Assembly: GCA_964016885.1 (NCBI GenBank)
Contig: OZ024741.1
Span: 319,238,001 to 319,302,000 of the forward strand
DNA: 64,000 nt
Origin: Eledone cirrhosa
Taxonomy: Eukaryota
Reading direction: 5' to 3'
A program made the translations under genes and the position numbers. Positions 7,031 to 48,799 of the stretch are shown here, piece after piece (the stretch's first letter is position 1; each line of letters opens with the position of its first letter). The notes below the pieces were generated by a model. It did not search any database. It was not told where the DNA came from and saw nothing but the letters and a program-made list of their open reading frames with translations.

Positions 7031-7544
7031 GCATAGGGAGGAAGCCTTCCACCACCATCACCACATGTGCCAGTATGTTCATAATTCCCTCCTCCTATTC
7101 ACTTTCCCTAAACCTGAAAAAGCAGAGAAGTGCAACAACTTTCAGAACCTTGCCTGCTGGTATATTCCTGACTTCCCAGTACCCCAGCATGGCCACAGTC
7201 TTATGACTGAAACAAGTAAAACATGTAGTTTTGCAAAAATAACTGCCATTGATTTTTGTTGTTGAGAAATTAAGAATAAGAAAGTTACAATCCTTTAAAA
7301 ATAGAATGTTTAAATTAATTTTAACCATTCAAAGAATTGTAGAAAGAAAAGTGAATGTTGCTATCGGGATTGAGACACACTAAGATGACACACTGTATTA
7401 CTCCAGATGTTGACATTCAAATGATGACACACTGTATAGCTCCAGATCTTCACACAATAAGGCAACATATTGTGTTGCTCCACATATAGACACTGAGGTG
7501 ATGATACAGTGTTGCTCCAGATCTAGACACACTGAGGTGATGGC

Positions 7545-8560
7545 ACATTGTACTGTTCCAGATCTAGACACACTGTACTGCTCCAGATCTAGACACACTG
7601 TACTGCTCCAGATCTAGACACACTGTACTGCTCCAGATCTAGACACACAGTACTGCTCCATATCTAGACACACAGTACTGCTCCATATCTAGACACACAG
7701 TACTGCTCCAGATCTAGACACACTGTACTGCTCCAGATCTAGACACACTGTACTGCTCCAGATCTAGACACACTGTACTGCTCCAGATCTAGACACACTG
7801 TACTGCTCCAGATTTAGACACACTGTACTGCTCCAGATTTAGACACACTGTACTGCTCCAGATTTAGACACACTGTACTGCTCCAGATTTAGACACACTG
7901 TACTGCTCCAGATCTAGACACACTGTACTGCTCCAGATTTAGACACACTGTACTGCTCCAGATTTAGACACTGTACTGCTCCAGATTTAGACACACTGTA
8001 CTGCTCCAGATCTAGACACACTGTACTGCTCCAGATCTAGACACACTGTACTGCTCCAGATTTAGACACACTGTACTGCTCCAGATTTAGACACACTGTA
8101 CTGCTCCAGATCTAGACACACTGTACTGCTCCAGATTTAGACACACTGTACTGCTCCAGATTTAGACACACTGTACTGCTCCAGATCTAGACACACTGTA
8201 CTGCTCCAGATCTAGACACACTGTACTGCTCCAGATCTAGACACACTGTACTGCTCCAGATTTAGACACACTGTACTGCTCCAGATTTAGACACACTGTA
8301 CTGCTCCAGATTTAGACACACTGTACTGCTCCAGATCTAGACACACTGTACTGCTCCAGATCTAGACACACTGTACTGCTCCAGATTTAGACACACTGTA
8401 CTGCTCCAGATTTAGACACACTGTATTGCTCCAGACAGAGACACACTGTATTGTTCCAAATCTAGACACATTGTATTGTTTCAGATGTAGATACACTAAG
8501 GTGATAACAATTATAGCTCCAGATCTAGACACACTATATTGCTCCAGATGTAGACACTGA
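7545..8560. repeat. 25-bp minisatellite (CTCCAGATYTAGACACACTGTACTG)n with degenerate edges
   Basis: Over 30 head-to-tail units, near-identical from ~7580 to ~8430, with a C/T variant at one position. Confidence 0.95.
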
Positions 8561-20610: not shown

Positions 20611-20743
20611 TCTGCGGTGCTGAGACCGAGGAGACCACTAATCATGTGAGTACTTCATACATAGGGGGTGTAGAGTGGGTATAGAACACACAAGCCAAAA
20701 CCACTTGGCACCATGGTGAGGATTTTACATATCTATCTATCTA

Positions 20744-22448
20744 CCAATAACATCGAAAATTTAAACAACACTAACCAGAACAACAACAACAACAACAACA
20801 ACAATAATGACAACAAGAACAACAACAACAACAGCAACAATGATAACAATAACACCACCACCAACAACAGCAACACGAACAACCACACAAGGAAAATATT
20901 TCCTTTGCACAAACCGTCCAAAAGACGGAACTGTTTACATATCTTGACATCTCCAATGCTAGGGAGTTGTTAAGAAAGGCAAAGCAATATGTAACTTTTG
21001 GTGAGACTTCAGCATCACTTCTCCTCAACAGTTACGTAGAGAAACTATCCTAAAAACAATAATTTTTAGGACAGTTTCAAATTCGTCTAAAAAACCAGTG
21101 CAATTATGCCAAAACGAAATTGAACTGGTTTTGAAGAATTCAATGAAGGATATTGCCTTTATCCAAAAAGATAAACTTTTCGGAAGCATTTCGGAGCTGA
21201 TGAAAGACCAATTGACGGCACAAAAATATTCTGTGTCGCCAATTGTGTCCCCCCTTTACACCTTTTTCCCCACATATATGGGAAAAAGAACCCAGAAAAT
21301 TAAAATTTCAAACATCACACCAAACGTAAACGTCTGGTGGATTTTGACTGGCTTCATCGATTTCGATGAAGACACCATAATTTCAGTGGGATAGTCCTCC
21401 AGAGTCACATTCAATGGTACAAGCCTGGAAGTTCTGTTTCAAAGGAGGCCAGAACGGATAGCTAAAATACCACAACGTGTGCCTCTGGATGGGAATTCAT
21501 ACATAAACAGTTCTGTTGAGGGTAGGCGGCCTTCATGTTACCACTGTTTAAGCAGTGGTCACCTAAAGGCTTACTGTCCTCAGCTAGCTGCAAGAAAAAA
21601 AGAGGCACTACTGCCAACACCCAAAACAACAACACAACCACCACCACCACCACCACAACAACAACAACACACAAACATAACCAAAACAAGAACAACAAAC
21701 CAAACTGCAAGCACAGTCCCACCCAACCCCCACTCCACCTAAAACCACAGCAAAAACACCCACAAACACAACATCTCCCCAAGACATACCCCTCCCCAAT
21801 CACACAGACGATACAACAGATGAGGCTCTCTCGTCATCACCCAGTGAAGACGAGGGAGAACCCCATCGCTCGAAAAGAAAAAAAATGCACCATAAAAACA
21901 AAAAAAAACAGCAAATACTACCACAAACATACAACCACCAACACAAACAACAAAAACATCACAAACAAAACCCCCACCTCCTGAAAACAAAATGCCTACA
22001 ACAAAACGAAAGCACACACAAGAACTACAGACAAAAACAAACACAGCACAAGAAAATTACACCTACACATACATAAACACTGAAAACAAAACACTAATGG
22101 AGACCATAACGAACAACCCTTCGGTGAAAACCGAAGGGAAAACTTTCGCAAACTCTAATAAAAATAATAAAAAAACCGAACCTAAAACTGATTAGGGTCC
22201 CTATACAAACTTATAGGTCCCTAAAAGAAACATTTGAAAAGGACGTGGGGAATTCCTGCGTGAAACCACTTAACCGCGTCCTTCTCAAATGTCTCTCCAC
22301 CCCAGACACCCCATCCCACCAGACATCCCCTCCCCACCAAACATCTCCGTCCCCACCCCACCGGAAACCACCACCCACCCAGACAACCCCTCCAACAACC
22401 CCATGGAACTTGAGCGACCCGCTCTCCAGGAAACTAAAAGGTGAGTGA
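20744..22448 (+). pseudogene. Disrupted ORF1 of copy A
   Basis: Fragments 21098..21394, 21479..21742 (EGRRPSCYHCLSSGHLKAYC knuckle) and 22245..22448 (CVKPLNRVLLK) align to ORF1 26286..28154. Confidence 0.88.
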
Positions 22449-22484
22449 ACTCTTCCCTTTCTTTTCTAACTCTTACTCACCAAC

Positions 22485-25400
22485 ATGGCGAATGTAAGAG
22501 TCGGTTGTGTGAATGTGCGCAGCCTGGGATGCCCTGGAAACAGACAAACTCTTAAACGACCTCAGGTCGCACAGTATGGATGTAATTGCCATCTGCGAGT
22601 CCAGGATCCACAGCGAGCGACAGCTGGCTCCCATCTTCGATGACTATGAGATCTACGCATCTCTCTGTCAACCGGGAGGTGGGGGCGGGGTTTCCGTTTT
22701 GCTGAGGAAACACCTGGGCCTCGTAACACAGACGGTACATCTGGACCCGGAGGGTCGACTGGTGGTCCTAGACGTTGACGGTAGTGAAGGTGAAGCCTTC
22801 AGGCTGGTGGCCGCATATGCCCCATCCGGGACTCCGCGGCCAGACTTCTTCAAATGTCTAGAGACTTTTCTGGGAACGTCCCGCTCCTTGCTTTTAGTGG
22901 GGGACTGGAATGGAATCCTAGATGCACGTTGGGACTATGTGGGAGCATGTCCCGATACAGGGGGGTGTAACAGCCTCAAACAGTTAATCGGCCGATTTGA
23001 CCTGGCCGATAGATATCGACTAGATTTTCCGACTGTGCCACTGTGGACGTGGACTAATCGCAGCGGGACATCTAGATTGTACCTAGATAGGGTTCTAGTT
23101 AGAAATAAGGACAGGGACATGTTAAGCTGTCCACAAATGTTCATGGTTGCCTATTCAGATCACAAACTAGTGACCTGCATGGTCAACCTTGATAGAACCC
23201 ATAGACAAGGACCCGGCTATTGGAAGCTGAACTTGTCGTTACCGACATGCAAAGCCTACAGTAGACGGATTAGCACTTTCGTTAAACAGCACTTGACAGG
23301 GGCCATTGTCAACAACAGATGGTGGTACTCTCTCAAGAGGGCAGTTAGATTAGACTCGTTAGTTTTTAGTAAAGAATTAGCGTTAGATAGAAATAGGACC
23401 GAGAAGGAACTGGTAGATAAAGTAGAAGAGGCAATTAGAAGTGGCAACGTAGCCAGCGTGCTAGCAACGAGAACGGCCTTGGACCAGTTCTTCGACGCAA
23501 AGCACGAGGGTTGCGTTGTCAGAAGCAAAATACGTGTTCTGGGTAACGAGGGAGCCAAAGCTGTTAGCCAGGCCCGGGTGACGGAGGCGAAAAGTGGCAA
23601 CAAGTCCACGATTCAGTCTTTGAATGACCAAGACGGACGCGTGATACGTGAGCCGAAACAGATGTGCGCGGCCTTTCAGCGGCACTTTGCTCAGCTGTTC
23701 CGGCAGGGTGACGCGGCGGAAGGGGCTATGGATTTCGGTCCATACCTCGACAGCCTGCCGCGACTCTCGAACAGCGAGGCGAAGTTCTGCGAAAGGCCGA
23801 TTTCAGCCGCTGAGATAGTGGACGCGCTGAGCCAATGCGGCAAACGCAAATCTCCAGGTCTCGACGGTCTACCCTACGAATTTTACGTAGCAATGCCGGA
23901 CTTGTTCTCTGTTCTCCTGGAAGCGGTCTACTGTAACTGGCAGCAGAATGGGAGAATTCCCAGTTCTGTGACCAGGAGCGTAGTCACGCTAGTCAGGAAC
24001 AACGAGAATAAGGAGGATGAGATAGGCAACTTCCGGCCCATAACTCTACTAAACACAGAGTTACAGATTTTGGCCAAGGTGTTGGCAAAGAGGCTGGCGC
24101 TTGTCAAATACCTGGTGGGAGAAGCGCAGATATGCGCAATCCCGACCAGGTCCATACACGATAACCTCCACCTCATGCGATACATCGTAGAGAGGGTTGG
24201 GTGTAAACCCGGCTTCGGTGGGGCCCTGACCAACTTGGATCAGTCTAAGGCTTTCGATAGGGTTGACCATCGTTATCTGGATGCGGTGCTCGAGGCGGCA
24301 GGCTTCGAACCCGTGTCCAGGGGCTGGATTGCTTTAATGCACAGCAGCAACATCTGCTCAAGGGTCAAGGTGAACGGCTACCTCTCGGAGCCGTTCCATA
24401 TCACGCGATCCATCCGACAGGGATGCCCTCTCTCCTCCCTTCTGTACGTACTGACTCTCGAGCCACTACTGCGGATGTTGGAGCTATTGCAGGGCATCCC
24501 TCTGGAACCGGGACTGCGGAAAGCGGCGTCGGCCTACGCCAACGACATGACAGTAATGGTATCGAGCACCTCGCAAATAGAGGAAGTCGGCACCTTACTG
24601 AAGGAATACGAAAGGTTCACAGGAGCGAAGCTGAACCGGGACAAGTGCATCGGTTTGCAACTCGGATCGTGGAAAAGCAAACCGATGCCTTCCGATGGCG
24701 TCGTCGAACGCTGGACGGAAGGACCGGTGAAGCTGCTCGGGGTCTGGTTTGGTCCGGACCTCCAGGTGGAGAAGAACTGGAACGAGGTGACGGCCAAGGT
24801 GTTTGCACTCACCCAGAAGTGGGCCGAGTGCAAACTATCCTTGAAAGGTCGAGCGGAGGTGGCGAACACTTTTATAGCGTCTGTCATCTACTACCGCTTG
24901 ACCGTTGTGCCTTGTTCAGCCAAAACGCTCACCAAAATGGAGCGCGTGCTCTTCCAATTCCTTTGGAAGAAGCGGGCTTCTTTGGTGAGAAGATCCATCT
25001 GCTGCCAACACCCTTCCAACGGAGGGCTGGGGATGCCGTGGCTAACGATTCGCAAACACGCGCTCAGGCTGCGGCATCTCCACGTATTCCTCACCGTACA
25101 ACCGGTGTGGGCCCCGTTCGTGAGGCGAGCCTTCCCACGACTCGTCTCGCTGACCGAGCTGCAGTCCTGGGTCAAGCAAAGACCGAGGAAAATAGGCGAT
25201 TGGCACATCGAATGTGCTCAGGCGCTCACGGACCCGGTTGTTAGTGGAGACTCCACTTCGTCATTCTATAGAAGGTTGGTCCGCAGCAAGTGCGACGACG
25301 CACTCGGAGAAACTCTAGGCGTAGAGGAAGACGAACTGGCCAGTCTGTTCGGTAGGACCTTCTGCCGGGACCGATGGACAACTTCCAAAGTCCCTGGCCT

Positions 25401-25878
25401 GGCAGTGCTACCAAGGAGCTCTACCAGTTCGAGACAAGCTCTACAGACATGGGCGCCCGGGCAGGGACCCTTCGAAAAATATCTGTCCGAGATGCGTGCG
25501 AGACGAAGAAACCGTCGCGGGCGTTACCGACCTGTGGGGCTATGTAGAACGACTAATGTCGCGAGTGGGACCAATCCGGTTGACCACCGAGTCCATTGTC
25601 ATGATCAAACCGCTACTCTCCTTCAAAAACGAAGGAGAGGCGGTTTTCCTTTGTGTGATAGCTATGGCGAAAGAGGTTGTATGGTGGACGAGGTTAAAAG
25701 GACTGAGATCAGACACCTTTCTCTCCAGCCAACAACTGATTCGTTTTTTTCAAATACCACTTTGGAAGAAGAATCAGGATGGAGAGAGAGGTGCTGTACC
25801 CCAGCAAATTTTATGAAAGGTGGGTGAAAGGGGCAAGAATGGCCCGAGTGAATGGCCTTCTCTCTATATCAGCCTGTA
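22485..25878 (+). pseudogene. ORF2 of copy A (APE endonuclease, RT, Cys-rich domain), frameshifted
   Basis: ATG at 22485 (MANVRVGCVNVRSL), then frameshift into 22513 frame. Motifs GDWN, SDH, KSPGLDG, FRPITLLN, KAFD, QGCPLS; catalytic YADD reads YAND. Further frameshifts from ~25360. Confidence 0.92.
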
Positions 25879-26002
25879 GGTTGAGGAAAAAGAGGAAGAG
25901 AGGAAAGGGGTACTCACTCTTTTTTACACGACTGTATGTAAAATCCCCGGCATGTCTTTATATTGTCCCCTTTTCTTGTGCGCCCCTGTGGCAAATAAAG
26001 AA

Positions 26003-26057
<55 letters not shown>

Positions 26058-26110
26058 CATCCATCTATCCATACATCTATCCATCCATCCATCTATCTAT
26101 CTATCTATCT
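26003..26110 (+). repeat. (ATCT)n/(ATCC)n microsatellite between copies A and B
   Basis: Direct reading. Confidence 0.95.
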
Positions 26111-26312
26111 TGATAGAGTAAGACACGCTTCACATCGGCTCCGCTATTCCATCGGGATTTACCCTTACTATTGTAAGTACCGGATAAATTTTTCAGTGCA
26201 ACACATTTGGAACACTAACCCCTGTTATTTAGGGAAACATTTTTGCATTTACCCCCTTTTTAGGGGGTAAAATAAATATCTATTTTTGCCGAAAAATTTC
26301 TTTCTTGGCAGC

Positions 26313-28154
26313 ATGGCGGAAAAGATGGCAGACATGTCTGCCATTAGCTCTGCCACGCCCCCCAAGTCTGAAGAACAAAAAATAATTACAACAAAATTAG
26401 ACAATGAAACAAACAAAGAAAATGAAAAAACAAATGTTAAGGAAAATGAGCAAACGGAAAACAAACAAACAGAAAATAATACAAATAACAACAGGGCAAC
26501 TTTCGCCCAGAAAACAAAACAATCCATTACATACACACCAATTGACCTAACTGCCGCCAGAGAAAAACTGGCCGAAGCAAAGAAACACATTGTTTTGGGG
26601 GAGAACGGAATGTTTTCCATTAACCCCCCCCCCCCCCCCCCAGAATTCAAGAAAGAAAGAACAGAGAACACAGTTCTCTTCAGAACTATACTGAACCAGA
26701 CAAGAAAGCCAGCACAGCCCAGCCAAATGGAAATAGAGTTAGTCCTAAAAGACTATATGAAGAATATTCTCTTCATACGAAAGGACCGACTCTATGGCAG
26801 CATTTCGGTCCTAACAAGAGACAAGGAAACGGCGGAGAAGCTTTCCCTAAGCCCACTCTCATCGACAACATACAGCTTCTATCCCTCCTACATGGGTAGA
26901 AGAACACAGAGAGTAAAAGTAAAAACAATGCTGCCCACAATGGACTTCTGGTGGGCTATTGCTGGCTTTATAGACATGGGCGAAGACACAATGCTGTCAA
27001 TGGGGAAGGCAACTGGAGATGCGTTCCTGGGAATGGGCCTCGACATATTAGTCCAAATGAGGCCCGAAAGAATAGCACAAATCCCGGATCGCATCTGGCT
27101 GGATGACCTTACCCCAATAGACATAATTGTAGAGGGGAGAAGACCAGCATGCTATTTATGCATGGAAAGGGGACACGTTAAGGCTAACTGCCCGAAACGT
27201 ATCCCCCAAAAAGGACTATTGCCCACACCCACCACAAACAGTACACCAACACCACCCACCTCCAAAAATACACTAATACCACACACAGCAAACAAAATAC
27301 AGACACCACCAACCACAAACACAACACAAACATCACCACCACCAGCACCAAACACAAGCACGACACAAAAATCACCACCACCAACCACAACACAAACATC
27401 ACCACCACCATCACCAACCACAAGCACGACACAAACATTACCACCACCACCACAAAACCCATTCCAAACAAATAATAAAAAAAACAGTAACAAATCTACC
27501 CTTCCCGCAAAAAAAAAACAACCACACAACACGTCCCTCCCACCTAGCGCTGAAGAGTTTCCCCCAACTTCTGAAGAAGAAGGAGGAGAAGCCTTCAGAC
27601 AAGTTAAAAGAAAAAAAAGAAAACACACACCCAGCACACCACAAATAACCCACACACAAACACCAACTCCAATCAAAAACACCCCACCCTCAACAAACAA
27701 AAATAAATCTGCGCCTCCCCTCTCCGAAACATTGACAGCATCACAAAAAAAGACGTTGCAATACACATATATAAATAAAGAAAACAAAAAACTGGTTAAA
27801 TTAATAAACAATAACCCTATGGTGCAGACCGAAGGGCCAAACTTTATCTCAACAGAGAACTTCACCCATTTAAAAATGATAAAGGTCCCTCTGGACCTTT
27901 ATCGTTCCTTAAAAGAACAATTTAGACGGGACGTGAGCCCCCCCTGTTTAAAACCGTTGAATCGCGTCCTCTTGAAAGATTTCCCCATAACCGCCCCTCT
28001 CCCTGACACAACTCCAAATACCCCAACCCCACCACACACGTGTACCCCCACACCACCACAAAACATCCCTCCACCCAACACACCTGATGCCATGGAAATT
28101 ACGCAACCCGGAGAGGTAGGTGCTTTTCTTTCTTCACTTTCAACACCAAAATAG
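26313..28154 (+). CDS. ORF1 (gag-like, single CCHC knuckle, Pro/Thr-rich linker)
   Basis: Open frame 26286..28154, first ATG at 26313; CYLCMERGHVKANC knuckle; basic KRKKRK motif. Confidence 0.88.
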   Translation: MAEKMADMSAISSATPPKSEEQKIITTKLDNETNKENEKTNVKENEQTENKQTENNTNNNRATFAQKTKQSITYTPIDLTAAREKLAEAKKHIVLGENGMFSINPPPPPPEFKKERTENTVLFRTILNQTRKPAQPSQMEIELVLKDYMKNILFIRKDRLYGSISVLTRDKETAEKLSLSPLSSTTYSFYPSYMGRRTQRVKVKTMLPTMDFWWAIAGFIDMGEDTMLSMGKATGDAFLGMGLDILVQMRPERIAQIPDRIWLDDLTPIDIIVEGRRPACYLCMERGHVKANCPKRIPQKGLLPTPTTNSTPTPPTSKNTLIPHTANKIQTPPTTNTTQTSPPPAPNTSTTQKSPPPTTTQTSPPPSPTTSTTQTLPPPPQNPFQTNNKKNSNKSTLPAKKKQPHNTSLPPSAEEFPPTSEEEGGEAFRQVKRKKRKHTPSTPQITHTQTPTPIKNTPPSTNKNKSAPPLSETLTASQKKTLQYTYINKENKKLVKLINNNPMVQTEGPNFISTENFTHLKMIKVPLDLYRSLKEQFRRDVSPPCLKPLNRVLLKDFPITAPLPDTTPNTPTPPHTCTPTPPQNIPPPNTPDAMEITQPGEVGAFLSSLSTPK

Positions 28155-31100
28155 ATCAATTGAGAGTTGGCTGTTTGAACGCGCGTGGCCTGGGCTCAGC
28201 TTGGAAGCAAGCAAAGCTTCTAAGTGACCTCAGGTCACAAAGTATAGATGTGATGGTTGTTTGCGAGAGTCGGATCAGCAGCGTGAGACAGCTGGCGCCC
28301 GCCTTCGATGACTTTGAGATGCACGCATCTCTCTGTCAACCCGGAGGCGGGGGGGGGGGGGAGTTGCCGTACTGCTGGATAAACGTCTGACTCTCGACGT
28401 ACAGATTGTTCACTCGGACCCGGGGGGTCGATTACTGGTGCTGGACGTCGGAGGCGGTGAAGGCGGGGCTTTCAGACTGGTCGGTCTTTATGCTCCCTTC
28501 GGGGCGGAAAGAGCCGACTTCTTCCAGCGTCTGGAGACTTTTCTAGGAACGTCGCGTTCCCTGCTTTTAGTGGGGGACTGGAATGGAATCCTAGATGCGC
28601 GTTGGGACTATGCAGGGGCATGTCCCGATAGAGGGGGGTGCAGCAGCCTCAAGGGGTTACTCGATCGATTCGACCTGGTCGATAGATTTCGACTAGATTG
28701 TCCAACTGCGCCAACCTGGACCTGGGCAAACCGCAGTGGACAATCTAGATCGTACCTAGATAGGTTTTTGGTTAGGAGTAAGGATAGGGACGTATTTAGT
28801 TGTCCAGAACTGATCATGGTTGGCTATTCAGATCACAAATTAGTGACCTGCGTGGTCAACCTTGATAGAACGCATAGACAGGGTCCCGGTTACTGGAAAT
28901 TGAACTTGTCCTTGCCGACAAAGAAAGATTACAGAAACCGGATTAGTAGCTTAGTTAAGATGCGGTTGACGGGAGCGATCGTCAACAGTAGGTGGTGGGT
29001 ATCTCTAAAGAGAGAGATTAGAGTAAGTTCGATAGGTTACAGTAAGGAACTAGCGGCGAATAGAAATAGGAAGGAAAGGGAGTTAACAGATAAACTAGAA
29101 GAGGCGATTAGGAGCGGAGACGTAGCCAGAGTGTTAGCGGCGAGAACGGCGTTGAGCCAGTTCTTTGACGCGAAGCACGAAGGCTGCGTTGTCCGAAGTA
29201 AAATACGTGCTTTAGGAAACGAGGGGACCAAAGCTGTTAGCTGGGCCCGCGTGACAGAAGCCAAGAGTGGAATTAAATCCACCATTCGGTCTTTGCGAGA
29301 CCAGGATGGACGGGTGATCCTTGAACCTGAGCGAATGTGCGAGGCCTTTCAAAGGCACTTTGCTCGACTGTTCGGAGGTGGCGGGGGGCCGGACGGGGAT
29401 GTGGACTTCGGTCCATACCTCGACGGTCTACCGCGTCTTTCGAGCGGCGAAGCGGAGTGCTGCGAAAGGCCAATCACAGCCACTGAAATCGGGGAAGCGC
29501 TCAGCCAATGCAGCAGACGCAAATCCCCGGGTCTCGATGGTCTACCATACGAACTTTATTTAGCTATGCCGGTCTTGTTCTCCGAACTCCTCGAGGCTGT
29601 CTATTGCAACTGGCAACAGAACGGGAGAATTCCCTGTTCTGTGACCAAGGGCGTGGTCACGCTAGTGAGGAAGGACGAGAGCAAGGGGGACGACTTAAGT
29701 AACTTTAGGCCCATAACTCTGCTGAATGCAGAGTTACAGATTTTGGCCAAGGTGTTGGCGAAGAGGTTGGCGCTTGTGGTGGGTGGTTTGGTAGGAGACG
29801 CGCAGACATGCGCTATCCCGTCCAGGTCCATTCACGACAACCTCCACCTCATGCGATACATCATAAAGAGGGTTGGCTACGAACCCGGCTTTGGTGGGGC
29901 TCTGATCAACTTGGATCAATCTAAGGCGTTCGATAGGGTCGACCATGGTTACCTGGATGCGGTGCTAGCGGCGGCGGGCTTCGGACCCGTTTTCAGGGGC
30001 TGGATTTCTGCCATGCACAGTGACAACATCTACTCTAGGATTAAAGTAAACGGCTACCTCTCGGAGCCGTTTCAAATCACCCGGTCCATCAGACAGGGGT
30101 GCCCCCTCTCCTCCCTTCTTTACGTATTGACTCTCGAGCCACTGCTGCGGAAGTTGGAGTTGCTGCGGGGCATACCCCTGGAACCGGGATTGCACAAAGC
30201 GGTCTCGGCCTATGCCGACGACGTAACAGTAATGGTGGCGGACGCCTCGGAAATCGGGGCGATCGTCACCCTACTGGAGGAATACGAAAGGCTGACGGGG
30301 GCTAGGCTGAACCAGGACAAGTCAGTCGGTTTGCAACTCGGAACGTGGAGGGGCAAACCGATGCCGTTAGATGGTGTCGTCGGGCGGTGGACGGAGGGCC
30401 CGGTGAAGCTGCTCGGGGTCTGGTTCGGACTGGACCTCCAGGTGGAGAAGAATTGGGGCGAGGTGACGAGCAGGGTGTTTGCGCTGACCCAGAAGTGGGC
30501 CAAGTGCAAACTATCACTGAAAGGTCGGGCGGAGGTGACGAGCGCTTACATAGCGTCCGTCATCTACTACCGCCTGACCGTCGTGCCTTGCCCCAAGGAA
30601 AAGCTCACCATCATGGAACGCATGCTCTTCCAGTTCCTCTGGAAGAAGCGGCCTCCCATGGTGAGGAAATCCATCTGCTGCCAGCACCCTTCGAAAGGAG
30701 GGCTGGGTATGCCGTGGCTGTTGATGCGTAGGCACGCATTGAGGCTACGGCATCTACAGGTATTCCTCAACGGTCAGCCGGTGTGGGCCCCGTTTGTGAG
30801 GCGAGCCTTCCCACAGCTCGTCTCGCTCACCGAACTGCAATCCTGGGTGAAGCAAAGACCGAGAAAACTGGGCAACTGGCACACCGAGTGTGCCCAGGCG
30901 CTCACGGCTATCTGGCAAGCGGACCCGACTATCAGTGGAGAATCCACCTCGACATTCTATAGAGGGTTGGTGGCTAGCAAGGGCGACGACACCCTTGGAG
31001 AGTCGCTAGGCATGGAGGAGGACGAACTGGCCAGCCTGTTCGGTAGAACTTTCGGCCCGGGACCCATGGACAACTTCCAGAGGTCCCTAGCCTGGCAGTG

Positions 31101-31593
31101 TTACCGAGGGGCTCTGCCCGTTCGAGAAAAGCTCTACAGACACGGGCGCCCGGGCAGGGATCCCGCGAAAAAGATCTGCCCCCGATGCGTGCGCGACGAG
31201 GAAACCGTTGCGCATGCACTGGTACACTGCCCGGGCGTTGCTGATCTGTGGGGCTACGTCGAACGACTGCTGTCGCGTGTGGCGCCGATTCGATTAACCG
31301 CCGAGTCTGTGGTGAACATCAAGCCGCCTCCTCCCTTCAGAAATGAAGCAGAGGCGGTCTTTCTGTGCGTAATAGCCATGATGAAAGAGGTTGTGTGGTG
31401 GACGCGCCTGAAAGGTCTGAGGTCGGGTGACTTTCTCTCCGGCCATCACCTGGTTTACTTCTTCCGATACCACTTCGGAAGAATGATCAGGATGGAGAGA
31501 GAAGTGCTTGGCCCCAGACAGTTTTATGAAAGGTGGGTGAAAGAAGCGAGAATGGCCCGTGTAAATGGGCCTTCTCTCTACATTGTTCTGTAG
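28151..31593 (+). CDS. ORF2 (APE endonuclease, reverse transcriptase, C-terminal CCHC) with one frameshift at a G13 run
   Basis: LRVGCLNARG, CESR, GDWN, YLDR, SDH, KSPGLDG, QGCPLS, YADD, CPRC...HALVHC. The frame break sits in the homopolymer 28349-28361. Confidence 0.92.
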
Positions 31594-31861
31594 GTGAAGA
31601 AGTGAAGAGGAAAGGGGGAGCGCCTCCTCTCTGGGCTTCCCCCGCGAAAAGAGTTGCACACTTTTCGGGGGTATGTGCAATCCCCAACACGCCCCCTCCC
31701 TTTTGAGGACTTTTTATTGTTATATTATTATTGTTATTCTTTTTTTCTTTACTCGATTTATGTAAACTCCCCCACTGTGTAAATGTCCCCTTCTTTTGTG
31801 CCCTCGTGGCAAATAAATAGAAATTTATCTATCTATCTATCTATCTATCTATTTATCTATC

Positions 31862-31978
31862 TTTATTTTATTTTTATACATTGTTATTGCCTCCTCCTTA
31901 TTGAGGACGCCTTTTTGTGTAAACTCCCCCCTTTGTACTTGTCCCACTTTTGATGCCCTGGTGGCAAATAAAAGAAAC
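31862..31978 (+). mobile_element. Third Tx1-like copy (C): 3' UTR-only, heavily 5'-truncated
   Basis: tgtaaactcccc...tgtccc...gccctggtggcaaataaaagaaa matches the 3' ends of A and B. (ATCT)n on both sides. Confidence 0.8.
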
Positions 31979-32114
31979 ATATCTATTATCTATCTATCTA
32001 TGGAGGGTTCGTTTCCATGCAGGTGCCTTTGTTCACTTCGTTCCGTTTCCGTACTTTACCAGATTTTCTCAACTATTATTATAGTTATTTACTTTGAGCT
32101 GAACACATTTAAAA

Positions 32115-39545: not shown

Positions 39546-39819
39546 GCGATCGCGAAATAATCATTTAGAGTTGTAATATAAGGATTAGTTTTATTTATAA
39601 ATCCTTATAATAATTATTTCTAATTCAGTAATATAACAAGGCCACGATATTTGTGAGAGGAAGCTGGTTAAATCGGCCTCAGTATTTTATCAATCACGAA
39701 AAGATAAAATGCAAAATCAACCTTGGTGAGGTTTGAACTCAGAACGTGAAGAGCCGTATAGCATTTTGTCTGTGTCAATGATTCTGACAACCCATCAGCC
39801 TTTTAATATTTTAATAATG

Positions 39820-40955
39820 GTTACTTTATTGGCCACAAGGGCCGACATATAGAGGACAATACAAAAGACAGGGGCAGTGGGGTTTACAATAAAATTGAGT
39901 AAAAAATATATACAACAGATAACAATAAACAACAAAATACATAATGAAAATTTCCCAACAGGGAGAACACCACCCAGGGGTGGCTCAGGAACCCCACCAA
40001 TCCTAAACCTCCCTACTCTTCATGAGCACTCTAGGAGGGCGTCCCTCACCTTTCCAAACTAGACAGCTTACGGGCGCATGGTCAGTGTAGGCCTATTCAC
40101 ACGGGCCATCCTCGCTACTTTCACCCATTTTTTAATAAATATACTGGGGATGGGGGTGGGGGAAGCACTTCCATCTCCACCTCGCCTCCCATTTCAGGCC
40201 GACTAAGAGATGCGAAGATCTCCTAGTCATCAAACATGGAGGCTAGTTCGTGCGTTTCGGAAGCCCTTGTCTCACTGACGGCAGTCACATCCACACCTAA
40301 TGATATGGAGTCGTTCAGTTAGCGTCCTTGCTTCCAGGATGACTTCTGACATTTAAGCATCTTATTAATATAATAGCCATATTGCCTGGTTAGTCAAGAC
40401 GAAAAAAGGGTGGGCTATTTACTCCCCAGGTACTGTTGGAGATCGGGTGGTTTGATCTCCATATTTAGTGGGTTTATCTCATGAACCCCTTAAAAAGCCT
40501 ACTGCTGGCTCTCATAATAGGGGTCCTCACGTTATGCGGAAAACTTTCCCTATTGCTTTTGTAGGCACCCAACGACATTCTTGCCATCATTAGATAATCA
40601 GGCTCTAAAAATCTCTATCTTGCTATGAGGACCATCAGTTTTTCGTTGGCCCTTCTTACTAGCACGAAGTGTCCTGAATGTGATGTTATTTGATGTGATT
40701 TTGCATGTTTTCATTTATTTTGTTGTTCTGCTGGTGGTAGCGGTGGTAGTGTTGGTGGAGTTTAAGTTGTTGTGGATGTGCCTGTGTTTGTTGTGTGCGT
40801 ATGATGTCAAATGTTATCGTCTTGTGTTTTCGTTTTTGTTTTTGTTTTGGTTTTTGAGGGTTCCCCCTCGTCTTCACTTTGAGATGAAGAGCTCTGTTTC
40901 AACTGTTCGTTGGAGTATATTTGTGTTTATGTGGGTGTCTGTGTGTTTTTGTGTT
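39820..40955 (-). mobile_element. Internally deleted Tx1-like element
   Basis: ORF1 C-terminal part, then ORF2 start (MAIILIRCLNVR...SETR...EIFASLSRP) joined directly to the ORF2 end (KWVKVARMARVN). 3' UTR ends gtggccaataaag. Confidence 0.82.
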
Positions 40956-41153
40956 TAGATGAGACGGATATATATATTAGGGTTCTTATATATTTGATAT
41001 ATATTTATCCTTATCGAACCCTCTTTGGATTTTAGTCTTCACATTTATTATTATTACTATATATATATATATATAGTTTAGCGAGGTTTTTTATATGAAA
41101 TCGTGTGTCGAAACAGATGTTGGAGATCGGGTGGTTTGATCCTCCCCAAATAT

Positions 41154-41242
<89 letters not shown>

Positions 41243-41330
41243 GGAGGTGAGTTTTATTGTAGTACAATAAAGCAATGCAGATATCGGATAAGAAGCACTC
41301 TACAGTTTGTAGGACTGGAGTATATATAAC

Positions 41331-41427
41331 ATATAAGAACAAAAGATGGTTAAAAGAGTTCCATTTGTTTTTGAAATGCGCATAATAAAATACATGGAAC
41401 TCTTTTAACCATCTTTTGTTCTTATAT
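41331..41427. repeat. Hairpin with ~34-bp arms abutting (TA)n
   Basis: atataagaacaaaagatggttaaaagagttccat / atggaactcttttaaccatcttttgttcttatat. Confidence 0.85.
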
Positions 41428-41446
41428 ATATATATATATATATATA

Positions 41447-41899
41447 AGTTCTATTTAAAATTGTTGGGATACAACAAGTAAATATTTTATAACTGATATA
41501 AAGCACTCGACAAGTTTTTGGAGTAGATATACGATATTAAATAAATGGAAACTATATTTATAAAACCATATTTATTTCATTATACATATTTCAGGGATAC
41601 CAAATTAAAATATGGTATGCCTTCATCAGACAAAATACAATATATAAACAGTTTTATAAATAATTTTGACGTACCCTATTAGATGCAACCATTATTTTTG
41701 GAAGCTGTCTGGATAGTACAGCTTCCAAAAATAATGGTCGCATCTAATAGGGTACGTCAAAATTATTTATAAAACTGTTTATATATTGTATTTTGTCTGA
41801 TGAAGGCATACCATATTTTAATTTGGTATCCCTGAAATATGTATAATGAAATAAATATGGTTTTATAAATATAGTTTCCATTTATTTAATATCGTATAT
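41447..41899. mobile_element. Palindromic double-hammerhead element (182-bp arms, 9-nt loop) in (TA)n
   Basis: 41527-41708 is the reverse complement of 41718-41899 (one mismatch seen). CTGATGA at 41797 and GAAA at 41834 on +, with a mirror copy on -. Confidence 0.9.
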
Positions 41900-41912
41900 A
41901 TATATATATACG

Positions 41913-41997
<85 letters not shown>

Positions 41998-42462
41998 AAT
42001 TGTTTATACTTTTGGCACAAGGCCATAACTAGTACTTTATTTTATCGACCCCGTAAGGATGAAAGGCAAAGTTAACCTCGGCGGAGAGGTACACAGATAT
42101 ATGTGCATACATACATATATATGTATATATAAACATATATTTTTTCACAAGTACGTGAGATTGTATGTTGTCGGCCTTAACTGTTGTCGACTTTAACTGT
42201 TGTTGACTTTAACTGTTGTTGACCTTGACCGGTGTATCACGTGATAGCGTCTCCCTCCGCATTTTTGAGATTCTCTCGCATGCTACGGACGTGTCTAGTT
42301 AACGCTCTTTCCCTGATGTGCTCTCTATGATATAAGATTTTTGCATAGTAACCAGCGAAACTGTACAGTCGGGACATTGAAGAAAAAATAGGTATGTGTG
42401 TGTGTGTGTGTATCCCGGGTTCAATCGGGGGTAACCACAGTAAGTGTCCTAGTTCTGTAGAA

Positions 42463-42564
<102 letters not shown>

Positions 42565-42589
42565 TGGGGGAGAGAGAGAGAGAGCTTTT

Positions 42590-43050
42590 TTGACGGACCC
42601 CTGGATGGTTTTGTTGGAGTCTGCTATTGTTGGTGGTTGAGGTGGTTCAGGCCGTTTCAGCTGCAGTTCGTTGTTGTTATGGTTGTTGTTGTTGTTGTTG
42701 TTCCGGTGTCGACTGCATCGGGACACCGTGGTTCCCTGTTTTTTTGTTGTTGTTGAAGGCAAAAATCTCTTAAATATTGGCCCATGCTTTCTCTACTTAT
42801 ATTACTTTGGCTGCCTGAGTCAAACATTCATCACCCCCATTAAAGTCCCTGTTGAACAGTTCCTTTATTTTCGCAGCCGTAGATGCGAATGGTATTTTGT
42901 TGTTGTTATTGTTATTGCTCTTGTTGTTGTTGTTGTTGTTGTCGTTGTTGTTGTAGTTAATGATGTTGTTGTTGCTGCTGCTGCTGTTGTTGTTATTGTT
43001 GTTGTTGTCGTCGTTGTCTTTGTTATTGTTTTTGTTGCTGCTGCTGCTGC

Positions 43051-43084
<34 letters not shown>

Positions 43085-43086
43085 GC

Positions 43087-43184
<98 letters not shown>

Positions 43185-43215
43185 TTGTTGTTGTAGCCGT
43201 TGTTGCTGCTGTTGG
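42590..43215 (-). mobile_element. Fragment of Tx1-like ORF1 N-terminus with (AAC)n expansion
   Basis: KIPFASTAAKIKELF...ECLTQAAKV aligns with STFAVMAVKTMELF...ECLSEAAKL in ORF 46823..47449. Confidence 0.6.
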
Positions 43216-46200
43216 GGAGATCAGAGAACAAGTTTGCCATATCTACGTAAAAATAGGCAGACCATCCAAACCAAGTGTTTTACACCTTGTACAGCCAGCC
43301 AGGGCTTGTGATCATGTATCCTGCGTCTATCTCGGTCCGTCAAAGACTAAATTCTGACTTTATTGCTACGCTGAGTTTCTGCCACACGGGCCCATCGAAC
43401 AGCTTTCGTTTCTTCATGTCTTAGAGCACGTGTCTTAGCTCTGAAATTGAACCTTCGTATTTCGCATTGAAGAAATAGTTAAGTACTATTCTCGCAGGTA
43501 GCATCCTAACCGCCTCTTCTAGTTTAATTACTCACCTTCTCTGCTCTATTTTTCTATTGCGACTTTTTTTATTTAGTAAAAGCTATTGATTTTACTCTAA
43601 TCGCTCTCTTGACTGCACCCCAATAACTATTGTTAATGCTTCTCTATGTCAACTGTTGCATAGTAATCTAAACCGGTCTCTGTAGGCTTTACACGCCGGA
43701 AGCGACGCGTTAAGCTTCCAGTAACCAGGTCCCTGTCTATCAAGGTCAACTATGCAGCTCATAAATTAGTAGTCTGAATTGGCAACCGTTTTAACTGTGG
43801 ACCCCTACACTATCCCTATCTACTAACCTAATGGAAAACAATACTAAATACGATCTAGATGACCGTAGGTGATTGCCTCATGACCACACTGTTGTATTTG
43901 AGAAATCTAGTCGGTAGCTGTCAGACACCTGAAATTGTCCGGTCAGCTTCTTGAGGCGCTTGCACACCCCCCGCTTCAAACAGCTACTCCCACACAGTCC
44001 CGGCGTGCGTCCACAATGCCGTTACAGTCCCTCGCAAATAGTAAAGGGCGAGACGTTCCAAGAAATGCTTCCATACACCTGAAAAAATCTGGTCATCCTG
44101 CCCCAGTTGGGGCATAGGCGGCCACCAGTCTAAAAGCACCACCTTTGCTATCCCTCACACTCTGGAACAACCAACTTACCAACCAGATTCAGGAAGATCG
44201 TCGGTACCTCAAAATCCAGGCTTTTCCTAAACAACACTGTCACCCTGCCTCCCATTCCAGGCCAAATAAGAGATGAGTAGATCTCAAAGAGGTAAAAAAA
44301 AAATCAAAATGGGGTCTAATGCCTGTGAGTCGGAAATCCTGGTTTCGTTGATGATTATCACATCTATCACTAGTGATCTGAGGTCGTTGAGCAAGCGGCC
44401 TTGCTTCCAGGAAGACCCTCAATCGCGTACATTTATGCACCCTATTCTTAAAATTACTATGTTGGCCGAAAAGAGTTAACAGAAAAAAGTGGCTACTTAC
44501 TCTCTCAGTGCTGTTGAAGATCGGATGGTTCAACCTCCATATCTGGTTAGAATTCTTTTGGGAACCCATTTAAAGGCCTACTGGTGGTTTTACATTAGGG
44601 GTACCCACGTCATTTGGGAGATTCTCCCTAATATTTTTGTATGTCTCACGATACATGTACACCATCATTAGTGTTTATGGTACTTTGAAAGTGCTGACTC
44701 CAAAAGTTTCCTCTTTTCTCTGAATATCCTAACTTTGTGTTATGAGGGCCATCAATTCTATTTTGGCCCTCCTCGCTGGCACGAAGTTTGGTGTCTGTGT
44801 GGCTGGTTGTTGTTTCTGTGCTTTTTTTGTGGATGGTTGTGGTGTGCATGTGTTGATGGCAGTGCTGGTTGTTTGCCGCTCGTGGTTGAGTTGTTGTTGT
44901 GGATGCGTCTGTATTTGTTGTGGGTATGTTTCCTGTTTTCTGGCGTGTGGGTGTTGGTGTGAGGTAAGAGTTTCTTTTCTATTTTTTCTTTCTTTTTTGT
45001 TTCTTTGGTTTAGGAGTTTCACTTTATCTTCACTTAGAGACGAGAAGATAGCAGTGCCTGCGGAATCTGTCTCGGGTATGGGTGGGAATGTGTTTGTATT
45101 TGTGTGAGTGTCTCTTATGTGTGTGTGGAGGGGAGAAGGGGAGCTTCGTTGGGAGACCCTCCTGGGAGTTTTGACGAAGGATATTTTTTTCTGTTGTTGG
45201 TGTTGGTTGTAGTGCATCTTCTGCTGCTGTTGGTGGTTTTGTAGTCACTGTTGTTGATGTTAACCCTGTTACCGGTGTTGGTATCGCTGTTGTTGTTGGG
45301 GTCCTGGTGTTAACAACAATGGTATTCTATGGCTCCCCGCTGTTTCTGTAGAGGGTAGGAAATTCAATTCTTAGGTGGTTCGATTCTCCACATCGATGAC
45401 ACCTACGAGGGTCAGCTGAAACGTTCATAACTTGATCAATATACTCTCATGGAATGTAACCAAAATGAGGTTTATTTTTCAACATAGTCCCCCATGTGGT
45501 CCACACATTTCTTCCGTCGGTGTTGCAGTGCTTGGATCCTATTGGCGTAGAAGCTTTTATCCTGTTGGTAAAATAATTCATCAACAGCAGATATGACGTT
45601 ATAATCACTGCAATACTGGTTCCCAGTCAGGTGTTTTTTCATGGAGATAGGGAGCATGATCAACCAGTTAAATTCTACAACCACACACAGCAGCCGTTGA
45701 AACCAGTTTTTCTGGCTGTTTGGTCTTGATAGCCTTTCGTAACTGCATCAGCAAGTTGGCATAGTACTCTCCATTGATGGTGTGGCCCTTTTGAAGATAG
45801 TCAATGAAAAATGCATTTTTTATCCCAAAAAGCTGAGGTCATCACCTTTCCTGTAGATGAAACGACCTTGGCCTTCTCTTGAACAGGCGAGGAGGAGTGT
45901 TTCCACTGTATGGTTTGTCTCTTTGTTTCTAGCTCAAAGTGATGAACCCAACATGCATCCTGGGTTTAGAAACATTCAAGGAAACCAGCTGGATCTGCCT
46001 CAAACAATGTCAGATTTTGCTGTGGTATGATCACCCTGGTGCGTTTTTGATCAGGTGTTAGAAGACATAGCACCTACTGAGCAGAAAACTTCGCCATGCC
46101 AAGTTCATTGTGTCATTGTGCAGAATATTCTCAATTCTCTCACGGGATATGCTAATAGCATTGGCTATTTGATTTATAGTCAATCGCCTGTCATCCATCA

Positions 46201-47263
46201 CTATGTGGTGAACACGATCAAGGTTTTCCTCGGTGGTGGCAGTTGCAGGACGTCCAGACCTTGAGTTATCTTCAAGACTCTCTTTTCCCTCTTAAATTCA
46301 GCTGCCCACGTTTTCCCTGTTGATAAAGCTGGAGCGTCATCCTTTAATGTAGTAACCATGTCAACATGAATGTCCTTGGGGGCTAAACCCCTTTTCTGTA
46401 GGTACTTGATAACACGACGGTGCCAAATTCTGTCCATTTTCAAGAGATGTCACTACTAGTTACTTTTGAAGTTTTCTTTGAACAATTAGATGTCATTTTA
46501 CCTGGACAAAAACAATGCACTTCTTAGTAAGAAGAGTTTAAATTAATGTATGCAAGATTTCAAAGCTCTAGCATCACTACTTCATAGCCAGCTTATGAAC
46601 ATTTCAGCTCACCTTCGTAGGCCTTTTACCCTCAATTTCCACTCGTAGCTCCACGCCACCCGGAAGACCAATTAGATCTAGGGACATATGAATCTTCTCT
46701 GTTTTGATCTGGAAAAGTACTTACAGACTGATCCTAAACCAGTTCTTCCTCCGGAACCTCTTTATTTCAAGGAGGGTTTCACTTCGCTCCGAGTCGATGC
46801 ATGCTAGAATCCCCCAGATGTCTTATTCAGGCGCGATCACTGTAATGCGGACCTTCATCGTGCTTCTTCCACTGTAAGGAGGTAATATTACGAATTGGTC
46901 TATTTTACAGGGAACCACAAAGTACTTCTTTGCAAGAGCCTTGTTTTTGAAGAGGACTGAGATGCTCCCAAACTGCTTGGACCTTGTAACGTGTTGTATG
47001 TCCGACATCAAGCCATACAGAGATGCATCCAAGTAGGATTGTGAGACCAACGCTGGCTTTCTGAACTTGATGCCGATACATCTTTCAGTTAGGGTTTTTT
47101 TTTGTTCAGTTGCTGCCAACACCTCAGACAGAACACTTATGTTGGTCCAGGTTTTCTCAACTGTTACAAGTTTGGCTGCCTCAGATAAACATTCCCCTCT
47201 TCTGCTCAAGACCATAACGAACAATTCCATAGTTTTCACAGCCATTACAGCGAACGTACTTTT

Positions 47264-47300
<37 letters not shown>

Positions 47301-47755
47301 TTGTTGTTGTCATTGTTGTTGTCGTTGACGTTCTTGCTGATGTTACTATTGTTGTTGATGTTGTTGCTGCTGTTTTTTGTTGTTGTTTTTGTTGTCGTTG
47401 CTGTTGTTGTTGCTGTTGCTGTTGTCGTTGTCTTTGTTGTCGTCGTCACCGTCGTCTTTGTTATTGTTGTTATTGTTGTTATTGTTGCTGTAGTAGTTAT
47501 TGTTGTTATTGCCGTTGCTGTTGCTGTTTTCTTTCTTTTTTTTTGTCGTTGCCGTTTTTTTCTGCTGTTGCTGTTGTTTTTGTTGTTGCAGTTGCTTTGT
47601 TGTTGGTGATGGTGACAATGGCTTAGTTGGTGATGTCTATAGTGATAGTGGTGACATTGTTACTATTAATCTTTAGGTTCCAGTCGAACTTGCTTTCTTT
47701 TCCGTGCAAAATGTTGCTGCTGTAGCTGGATGTGAACGAAGTTGTAGCCTCCATT
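43216..47755 (-). mobile_element. Decayed Tx1-like element (5' UTR, ORF1, ORF2 EN to start of RT), interrupted by mariner
   Basis: ORF1 KQFGSISVLFK...PPYSGR. ORF2 remnants LDRQGPGYWKLN, FFNAKYEG, KAVRWARVAE, GLDGLP..FYVDMANLFSDL. Confidence 0.82.
45406..46617 (-). mobile_element. Mariner transposon (irritans-subfamily-like), decayed transposase
   Basis: TA target duplication; TIRs cgagggtcagctgaaacgttcataa / ttatgaacatttcagctcaccttcg. Transposase pieces MDRIWHRRVIKYL...WAAEFKR and ...CVDHMGDYVEK*. Confidence 0.92.
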
Positions 47756-47809
47756 TTTCAAAAGCTTTGTGGGCATATTTTGCAAATATAATTGCAATAT
47801 TTAGATCTT

Positions 47810-48310
47810 GTGAACCAAATGCTATGGGGTTACCTTTTTTAACGGCAATGCTCACCGCTCTCATCCATCTAACAAAATGGCTGGAAGGCAATACTTCCCT
47901 CTCCTTCCTGATTTTCCTAAAAAAGTGAAACATGAAGAAATTAATGAGGGATTCGCCAAAGAGGAAAGTGTTTGTCTTCAGCCACCAGGCATATTAAAAC
48001 TGCTCGCCCTTCCTGGTTAAAAGAAGGAAGTGGGGCAATCTTCATGTTGGAATCAGCTGATAGCTAGATCCATCTTACATGTGACAGAAGGTGTTTGATA
48101 TAAAACCACAGGTCAGCAATTCTCAGGCACTGAATGAGTGCATGCAAGATGGTTTCTTCACCCTATGTGCATCTCGAACATGCTCGGCTGATGGCGCTTT
48201 TGTGTCTAGATTTTATCTCAAACCAACAATGCTCCCTGGAGGTGCTGCCAGGCCATAGATTCCTGGAAGTTATCCTTTGACTCTGGACTGAAAGTTCTCC
48301 AGAAGTGATT
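47810..48310 (-). mobile_element. Tx1-like ORF2 C-terminal fragment
   Basis: Reverse complement has NFQESMAWQH, CSRC...ETILHALIQC and KEREVLPSSHFVRW, homologous to the copy B C-terminus. Confidence 0.75.
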
Positions 48311-48799
48311 AGCTAGTTGAACATCTTAAACATCCCTCTGTGATATCTCGCATAAGATAGATGAATCTTTTTATTATGGCACATGTCTGTACCTCCCCTA
48401 CCAGACTGCTGAAGACAAGCACCAAACTTCGTTGTCATCATCATATTATTCATAATAGTGTGTAATTTAAAAATTATCAAAGGATTTTCAAAATTTAATA
48501 TTTTCAACAATTTTGTTGTAGTGGTTGCAAACAAGAAAATCAAGAGGGATTAATCATTTCACTACCATATCTCTAATGGAAGATGTTTTGAAAATAATCA
48601 AAAATTTGAAAGTAATTTAGTAATATAACTAACTTTCTTGTTATTAAGTTGGTGTTTGGAGCACAATTTAACAGGAGATCTTACATAAAATTAGGATGGA
48701 AAGTTTTAAAATAAATATAAACATTTTGAAATAAAAAAAACTTTGTAGAACCAAAGGCAGTTTCAGGTAGATTGGTTCTAAAATGGATAAATATTAACT

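Follow-up and report, generated by a model that had tools for sequence, protein, structure and literature searches.

Thousands of related Tx1-like retrotransposon copies at TATCT motifs, mostly within ATCT/GATA repeats

The window, the whole stretch of 64,000 nucleotides analysed here, contains three retrotransposon segments that follow one another head-to-tail, with an ATCT repeat at each of their junctions. The locus raises the question of whether such a repeat is the site into which these elements insert or something that the elements bring along with them.

An array of three related families

The array, all features of which are on the + strand, begins at a (TATC)3.5 host tract (20730..20743) forming the 5' junction of element A (20744..26002), a decayed copy 5'-truncated within ORF1. 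A tract of (ATCT)27 (26003..26110; 27 units, 92%) separates A from the full-length element B (26111..31826; 5,716 nt). Another, (ATCT)9 (31827..31862; 9.2 units, the run beginning at about 31826), separates B from element C of family C (31863..31979), and an ATCT tract of 5.8 units (31980..32001) closes the array at the 3' end. All four junction repeats given in the preliminary description were recovered, as were the common orientation of A, B and C, their differences in sequence and truncation point, and the AATAAA (25994, 31812 and 31967), after which comes ATCT and not poly(A). The linker between AATAAA and ATCT is 3-9 nt long and specific to each family. Such tracts are far above chance: at least three ATCT units occur in the preceding 40 nt at 0.08% of random positions. 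Two points had to be amended: A (truncated) and B (full-length) are indeed stacked retrotransposons, but the third member is only a 117-nt stub of a 3' UTR, and the three do not represent one family but three different related ones, part of a set of families whose ends number more than 10,000. On the - strand, at 39818..40130, lies the 3' end of a family D element from a sister lineage, which runs into ATT, not ATCT.

Identity to B is 79% for A across ORF2 and 84% for C across 68 nt. The ORF2 of A (about 22485-25879) carries frameshifts and its YADD is changed to YAND, hence A is dead. It is 88-91% identical to family E copies (L233, L242, L343), and its last 84 nt match the 3' UTR of another subfamily, owing either to a deletion or to a chimera. 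B is about 98.5% identical to its family peers. Its ORF1 (26313..28154; 613 aa) is open, and its ORF2 (28151..31593) starts at an ATA that overlaps the stop of ORF1; a single frameshift in a G-run of ORF2, near 28340-28357, means that the endonuclease of this copy is not an intact reading frame. Both frames are open in 5 of 59 full-length B copies. The genome contains 566 exact B heads, 1,536 exact family C 3' ends and, over several families, about 13,500 3' ends of such elements.

ORF2 has the architecture of APE-type non-LTR elements of the L1/Tx1 group, with an N-terminal APE endonuclease, RT and a C-terminal zinc motif (Pfam Exo_endo_phos, RVT_1 and zf-RVT), and the 5' truncations and target-site duplications expected of an APE-type non-LTR retrotransposon both occur. 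ORF1 of B has a single CCHC knuckle (residues 279-295; CX2CX4HX4C at 280-293), which Pfam zf-CCHC matches at E 0.018, weaker than its curated cut-off. A CCHC zinc knuckle in ORF1 is a feature of the Tx1 clade. The endonuclease catalytic residues are invariant, and the predicted endonuclease structure (pLDDT 91.9; a single-sequence model with pLDDT 41 was discarded) has the L1 endonuclease as its best match (TM 0.82, E 2e-19). In trees with unnamed outgroups and no named Tx1 reference protein, the ATCT group forms one clade by RT and is not resolved as one clade by endonuclease. The elements are several related L1/Tx1-type APE-RT LINE families.

Insertion sites across the genome

Thousands of related copies have landed at TATCT motifs, mostly within ATCT/GATA repeats, stacking head-to-tail. 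Were ATCT confined to the 3' ends, the 5' flanks would be random, and this is not what was found: those of truncated copies are rich in ATCT. At least two tandem ATCT units occur in the upstream 40 nt of 20/31 5'-truncated family-C copies, and at least three in 15/31; for solo copies, not lying behind another element, the counts are 10/21 and 6/21. The corresponding background is 0.21% and 0.08% at random positions, and 6.7% and 4.1% at 973 TATCT sites. Fisher p values for the enrichment, 1.6e-15 for all copies and 6e-7 for the solo ones, are optimistic because the background tracts cluster at about six loci in 200 kb. A tandem tract is absent upstream of 11/31 copies and any ATCT of 6/31; no junction duplication was found in four of those six (L144, L236, L243, L245) or in L159. 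Informative truncated copies of family B are few, L070 and L088 supporting the pattern and L064, L204 and L086 having no ATCT at the junction. A published threshold for target specificity, as set out in the available part of PMC4494074, is the target in more than 20% of flanks; here 20 of the 31 truncated copies and 531 of the 566 B heads have it.

In family C, agreement of the 3' flanks with TATCT is 94-100% and drops to 60% at base 8; no more than one perfect unit is present in 21 of 47 of these flanks. A few copies occupy an isolated TATCT or TATAT, where the duplication is clean. Of 22 informative truncated copies, 11 (L231, L154, L137 and L244, for example) have non-repeat bases of their 3' flank again at the 5' junction, the other half having no diagnostic duplication. 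The diagnostic duplications, about 11-20 nt long, begin at or beside TATCT, and the 3' repeat is therefore part of the target, not an obligatory tail. Of the earlier proposal of independent, (ATCT)n-specific insertions, independent insertion at an ATCT target holds, but strict tract specificity was overstated, because 11/31 copies have no upstream tandem tract and the invariant core is only TATCT. The preference is strong, and TATCT is its core.

Full-length B copies present a different junction. ATCTATCT directly precedes 531 of the 566 heads in a fixed phase and mostly with no duplication; together these suggest that the B RNA carries a leader annealing to the target. Recurrence of 3'-flank bases was seen in 2/13 full-length copies, one of these being a tandem-array artefact; the contrast with truncated copies (p 0.07 as run, 0.024 minus the artefact) mostly compares two different families. 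Fifteen of 37 full-length B copies lie behind the 3' end of another family member. As evidence of a pre-existing tract, the 5' flanks of full-length copies were set aside, because an RNA leader could supply them, and a family-A 3'-UTR sample was not counted, because several of its junctions are switches between subfamilies. In sequencing reads, only two single-start joints ran from a 3' end, across ATCT, into an internal position, too weak to count.

Endonuclease and RNA end in target choice

The landing at TATCT is likely due to recognition of the motif by the endonuclease together with the RNA ends. The reading that we consider probable is insertion at TATCT in one orientation, strongly biased to ATCT/GATA tracts, by means of an endonuclease nicking the AGATA strand and a predicted pairing between RNA end and target. 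The element's own 3' end comprises AATAAA and the family-specific linker and lacks poly(A), the trailing ATCT matching the target site, as the junctions show. The endonuclease, whose specificity is inferred, would nick the (AGAT)n strand no more than two bases from where TATCT starts; a read-through RNA end (..UAUCU) could then pair with the freed 3'-OH and prime reverse transcription. The second nick falls about 7-20 nt downstream, often 11-17, as the duplications show. Full-length transcripts may start in the upstream tract, so that their cDNA would end in (AGAT)n and anneal to the target, leaving the fixed-phase ATCT|head junction, usually with no visible duplication; such cDNA may favour full-length copies. 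Each insertion would leave ATCT on both flanks, and later insertions of sister families would therefore stack head-to-tail. Both components have precedents in the available parts of published work: swapping the endonuclease sets the target of TRAS1/SART1 (PMC1919474), and target-matching 3' RNA improves priming by R2Ol (PMC6795142). Folds of the 3' ends were no more structured than those of shuffled sequences (z -0.34 to 0.28).

The same genome holds a sister clade ending in (ATT)n. Its ATT targeting is only partly shown: hand-picked cases support it, and at least two ATT units lie upstream of 2/8 truncated copies from an unbiased sample (n=30, of which 17 ran past the locus, 3 gave no match and 2 continued as element). 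The endonucleases of the ATCT and ATT clades have 18 fixed differences, including Ser/Ile at the hairpin tip, a change that we rejected as proven cause of a target switch because it is one evolutionary event among the 18. A tentative extension, less likely than not, is that one octopod Tx1-like lineage may have split into ATCT-reading and ATT-reading endonuclease clades, the youngest ATCT family possibly having repeat leaders at both RNA ends, mostly full-length 5.7-kb insertions and a non-AUG ORF2 start. If true, the two clades would form a naturally matched pair in which APE target switching could be mapped, and would give a lead on inserting at full length into GATA repeats.

The strongest competitor, somewhat unlikely in our judgement, is a loosely specific endonuclease nicking many A/T-rich sites, of which only nicks complementary to a read-through (UAUC)n RNA end are primed, so that the target is inherited through the RNA end. 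It agrees with the absence of poly(A), with a conserved target only about 5-7 nt long, as long as a priming duplex would be, and with the joint change of tail and flank in the sister clade; furthermore, according to the available part of PMC1950540, a Tx1L hairpin grafted into L1 did not transfer specificity and a tip mutation left it unaltered. However, sites with a mismatch among their first five bases were used (TACCT in L071, TATCC in L193, TATAT in L241), off-target copies lie in (CT)n/(AT)n (L191, L164, L170, L311), yet no family with such ends occurs in the samples, and the upstream enrichment relative to a null of TATCT sites alone requires recognition or access in addition to the primer.

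Near-random insertion, with copies surviving or being retained at tracts and the repeats made afterwards by tails or slippage, is very improbable. Some copies do lie at unrelated sites (L144, L245), slippage is able to lengthen a duplicated TATCT, and the 5' evidence in the ATT clade is weak (the same 2/8); but the pattern is already present in young copies (96-99% identical), duplications with unique bases begin at TATCT, and orientation and phase are single across hundreds of copies. Least credible is the case named as refuting in the preliminary description, in which the element itself encodes the (ATCT)n tail and its 5' flanks are random, combined with arrays formed by duplication or recombination: tandem B-B repeats (L076, L084, L087) and recombinant junctions (L210, L227, L237) exist, but flank and duplication data largely refute it, the 5' flanks of truncated copies being ATCT-rich, lone-TATCT copies carrying a single TATCT with no extra tail unit, and array members differing in family and truncation point.

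Relation to known target-seeking elements

A search of published papers found no ATCT-targeting Tx1 element; by this literature the group, which is very large, has an apparently unreported target. Since young open-frame copies and the ATT sister clade occur in the same genome, control by endonuclease or by RNA end is testable by swaps. A further consequence is that, in this genome, many tracts of GATA mark junctions of retroelements, which is relevant to marker design and repeat annotation.

The closest solved sequence (E 4e-48) and fold is human L1 ORF2p (PDB 8SXT, 1VYB, 7N8K), with the nine-residue hairpin loop of its endonuclease in register; L1 has poly(A) and T-tract targets, whereas the present elements have no poly(A) and a CCHC ORF1. 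The octopus 'L1-Tx1' class resembles them, at class level, in abundance and recent activity, 13/80 families being young in O. vulgaris, and the available portions of text and supplement report no target preference for it (PMC13282606, PMC8967140). Read-through of R2Ol/R1 type is similar in that the RNA's 3' end matches the target and pairs with it once it is nicked; for R2Ol, as described in PMC6795142, pairing was shown for a restriction-like enzyme at an rDNA target, whereas here it is read from junctions only.

Microsatellite-seeking APE retrotransposons are known and their molecular basis is described as poorly understood in the accessible part of PMC3812793, which lists Waldo at (ACAY)n and Mino at (AC)n in insects, and Dong at (TAA)n. 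These too are non-LTR elements with a short tandem repeat as their target, in Waldo a tetranucleotide, but they belong to other clades and use other repeats. The clades concerned are R1 and R4. Dong would share its repeat with the ATT sister lineage, with a different type of enzyme. Also comparable, as described in the available parts of PMC4494074 and PMC3812793, are the Tx1-clade elements Kibi, at (TC)n, and Koshi, at (TTC)n, of teleosts and the crocodilian Tx1 families at (TTCC)n/(TTTC)n. They too are APE-RT elements with a microsatellite target preference, but their repeats are pyrimidine-only, whereas TATCT/(ATCT)n is the target here, (TC)n flanks being sporadic and the (TC)n/(TTC)n target of Kibi and Koshi not being the one used. 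The present elements also differ in their likely octopod mollusc host, more than 10,000 ends and several families, and the group apparently brings a further target repeat to an established type of repeat-seeking retrotransposon.

Composition and abundance of the elements

In the window, the arrangement set out in the preliminary description was confirmed: ATCT tracts lie at all four junctions of the array, the three elements share one orientation, and their ends consist of AATAAA, a linker and ATCT. Three stacked pieces are indeed present, but only element B (26111-31826, plus strand) is full-length; element A (20744-26002, plus strand) is decayed and 5'-truncated, and element C (31863-31979, plus strand) is merely a 117-nt stub. 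Since A and B are 79% identical across ORF2, and C and B 84% identical across 68 nt, the three were assigned to separate families. ORF1 of B is open (613 aa) and carries a CCHC motif, and ORF2 has an APE-RT-zinc layout with one frameshift within a G-run in the window copy. The nearest solved protein is L1 ORF2p (E 4e-48); among named proteins the nearest relative comes from Argonauta hians (67% across the RT region), which makes an octopod host likely. Assignment to the Tx1 clade is tentative and based on this architecture. In 15 of the 37 full-length B copies another family member immediately precedes the element, hence the array is ordinary for the group.

The 3'-end motif common to the group occurs 23,504 times in the 3.0-Gb genome. 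Its GGCA/GGCT variants account for 18,108 occurrences, with ATCT 2-9 nt behind in 14,802 rows; as 9 of the first 100 such rows were counted twice, we estimate about 13,500 ATCT-type ends. For the GGCC variant (5,396, obtained by subtraction), only 85 rows show ATCT at this distance, and its ends run into ATT. Among the first 30 motif matches on contig 1, 15 are followed by ATCT and 10 by ATT, while 5 have other ends. Exact 5' starts (heads) of B number 566, and exact C ends 1,536.

Elsewhere in the window, a 25-bp minisatellite (38 copies, 96% identity) occupies 7544-8497. The B 5' UTR (26120-26357) matched, without differences over 238 nt, a sequencing run (X5) that carries another organism label; a close relative, transfer or contamination could each account for this.

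Flanks of truncated and full-length copies

ATCT or a one-base variant continues behind all 30 B loci sampled. The decisive copies are the 5'-truncated ones, because their upstream flank cannot derive from the RNA. From 40 family-C matches, 9 were dropped (7 full length, 2 recombinant), leaving 31, window stub included. The preliminary description held random 5' flanks to be fatal to its proposal; the upstream 40 nt are instead rich in ATCT, which is present in 25/31 copies, with 2 or more tandem units in 20/31 and 3 or more in 15/31. For copies not behind another family member these values are 15/21, 10/21 and 6/21. In 20 arbitrary 10-kb background stretches, 2+ and 3+ units were found at 0.21% and 0.08% of positions, and at 6.7% and 4.1% of TATCT sites (n = 973). 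The Fisher p-values of 1.6e-15 (all truncated C) and 6e-7 (solo copies) are optimistic, since background tracts cluster at about 6 loci. Where the 3' flank leaves the repeat within 12 bases (L242 excluded), 11 of 22 copies show the diverging bases again at their 5' junction; this reveals duplications, about 11-20 nt long when microhomology is counted, that begin at or beside TATCT.

At least two truncated B copies (L070, L088) support a target, and at least three B junctions (L064, L086, L204) are without ATCT. At most one perfect unit is held by 21/47 C-type and 9/53 B 3' flanks. Thus a target preference for TATCT/ATCT tracts well above background is real and well supported, but the strict (ATCT)n specificity proposed earlier fails: 6/31 truncated C copies have no upstream ATCT, and 11/31 no tandem tract.

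The head was reached in 37/40 copies of the contig-1 sample, and 531/566 B heads are directly preceded by ATCTATCT. Among 13 informative full-length B copies a diagnostic duplication was seen in only two, one of which is an artefact of a tandem B-B repeat (full-length versus truncated, p 0.07 as run and 0.024 without the artefact copy), and visual inspection of 4 informative full-length C copies revealed none. The transcript may begin within the upstream tract, its cDNA then annealing to the target.

A second LINE passes directly from its stop codon into a (TAGA)n run and thereby creates ATCT tracts on the other strand (L251:6643 and 7587, L269:5005, L065, L327). Its C-terminus looks RTE-like. 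It has 3,052 exact ends, accounts for 3 of the roughly 6 tract loci of the 200-kb background, and may thus provide the Tx1-like elements with insertion sites.

Coding capacity and the ATT-type sister lineage

Among 59 distinct full-length B copies, ORF1 is open in 14, ORF2 in 10 and both in 5. ORF2 begins with ATA overlapping the ORF1 stop codon (TAG) in 52/52 readable B copies (window 28151-28154), which suggests non-AUG re-initiation; families A and C have ATG. The endonuclease of L200, a natural open-frame copy, keeps the invariant catalytic residues, and its predicted fold (pLDDT 91.9) resembles L1 endonuclease (TM 0.82).

The RT tree places the ATCT-type rows together in a single clade (support 99/97; 9 rows, 3 with unclassed ends), to which the ATT-type rows are sister (91/91); two ATCT-side rows are unresolved in the endonuclease tree. 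The endonucleases of the two types differ consistently at 18 positions (11 versus 11 loci). One, Ser191/Ile, aligns with L1 Pro197, the tip of the T192-S202 hairpin; as it is a single event, and loop grafts in L1 did not transfer specificity (PMC1950540), it serves only as a lead. For the ATT-type, evidence of targeting from the 5' side is weaker (2/8 truncated copies), L290 and L305 being single cases with clear duplications. The pair would gain interest if it reflected a true endonuclease switch.

The minus strand at 39818-48320 holds several decayed relatives that are closest to the ATT-type lineage; a mariner-like fragment (at about 45470-46380, identified by eye) and tracts of (AAC)n and (TAC)n break them up. 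A short repeat of tRNA-like, SINE-like character, with (ATT)n on its flanks, often adjoins ATT-type elements (L284, L286, L334, L338, L374, others), and at L372 and L391 a common non-Tx1 body, possibly a non-autonomous partner, is joined to an ATT-type 3' end.

Mechanism and relation to known elements

Insertion is probably led by an endonuclease that would favour TATCT within ATCT tracts, assisted by RNA-target pairing at both RNA ends; each insertion would renew the target, and head-to-tail arrays would build up. The main rival, in which RNA-end pairing alone picks among loosely placed nicks, is conceivable but rather doubtful. Passive accumulation of copies at tracts fits the evidence poorly and is very improbable. 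A purely encoded tail, also a poor fit, is hardly credible: the copies at L231, L154 and L137 sit at a lone TATCT and lack an extra unit, so no tail is obligatory.

Literature searches found no ATCT/GATA-targeting Tx1 element, Repbase/Dfam, the likeliest place of record, being outside their scope; in our judgement the chance that the group is already recorded there is somewhat short of even. Parts of PMC13282606, PMC8967140, PMC9115989, PMC1919474, PMC3747384, PMC7943196 and PMC6795142 were also drawn on. No ATCT-type repeat is named in the main text of PMC4494074, whose Figure 3 and supplements list further targets. Among known systems, the closest parallels are the short-repeat targeters Waldo, Mino, Kibi, Koshi and Dong in the consulted part of PMC3812793, and Kibi, Koshi and the TTCC/TTTC families, with microsatellite targets, in that of PMC4494074.
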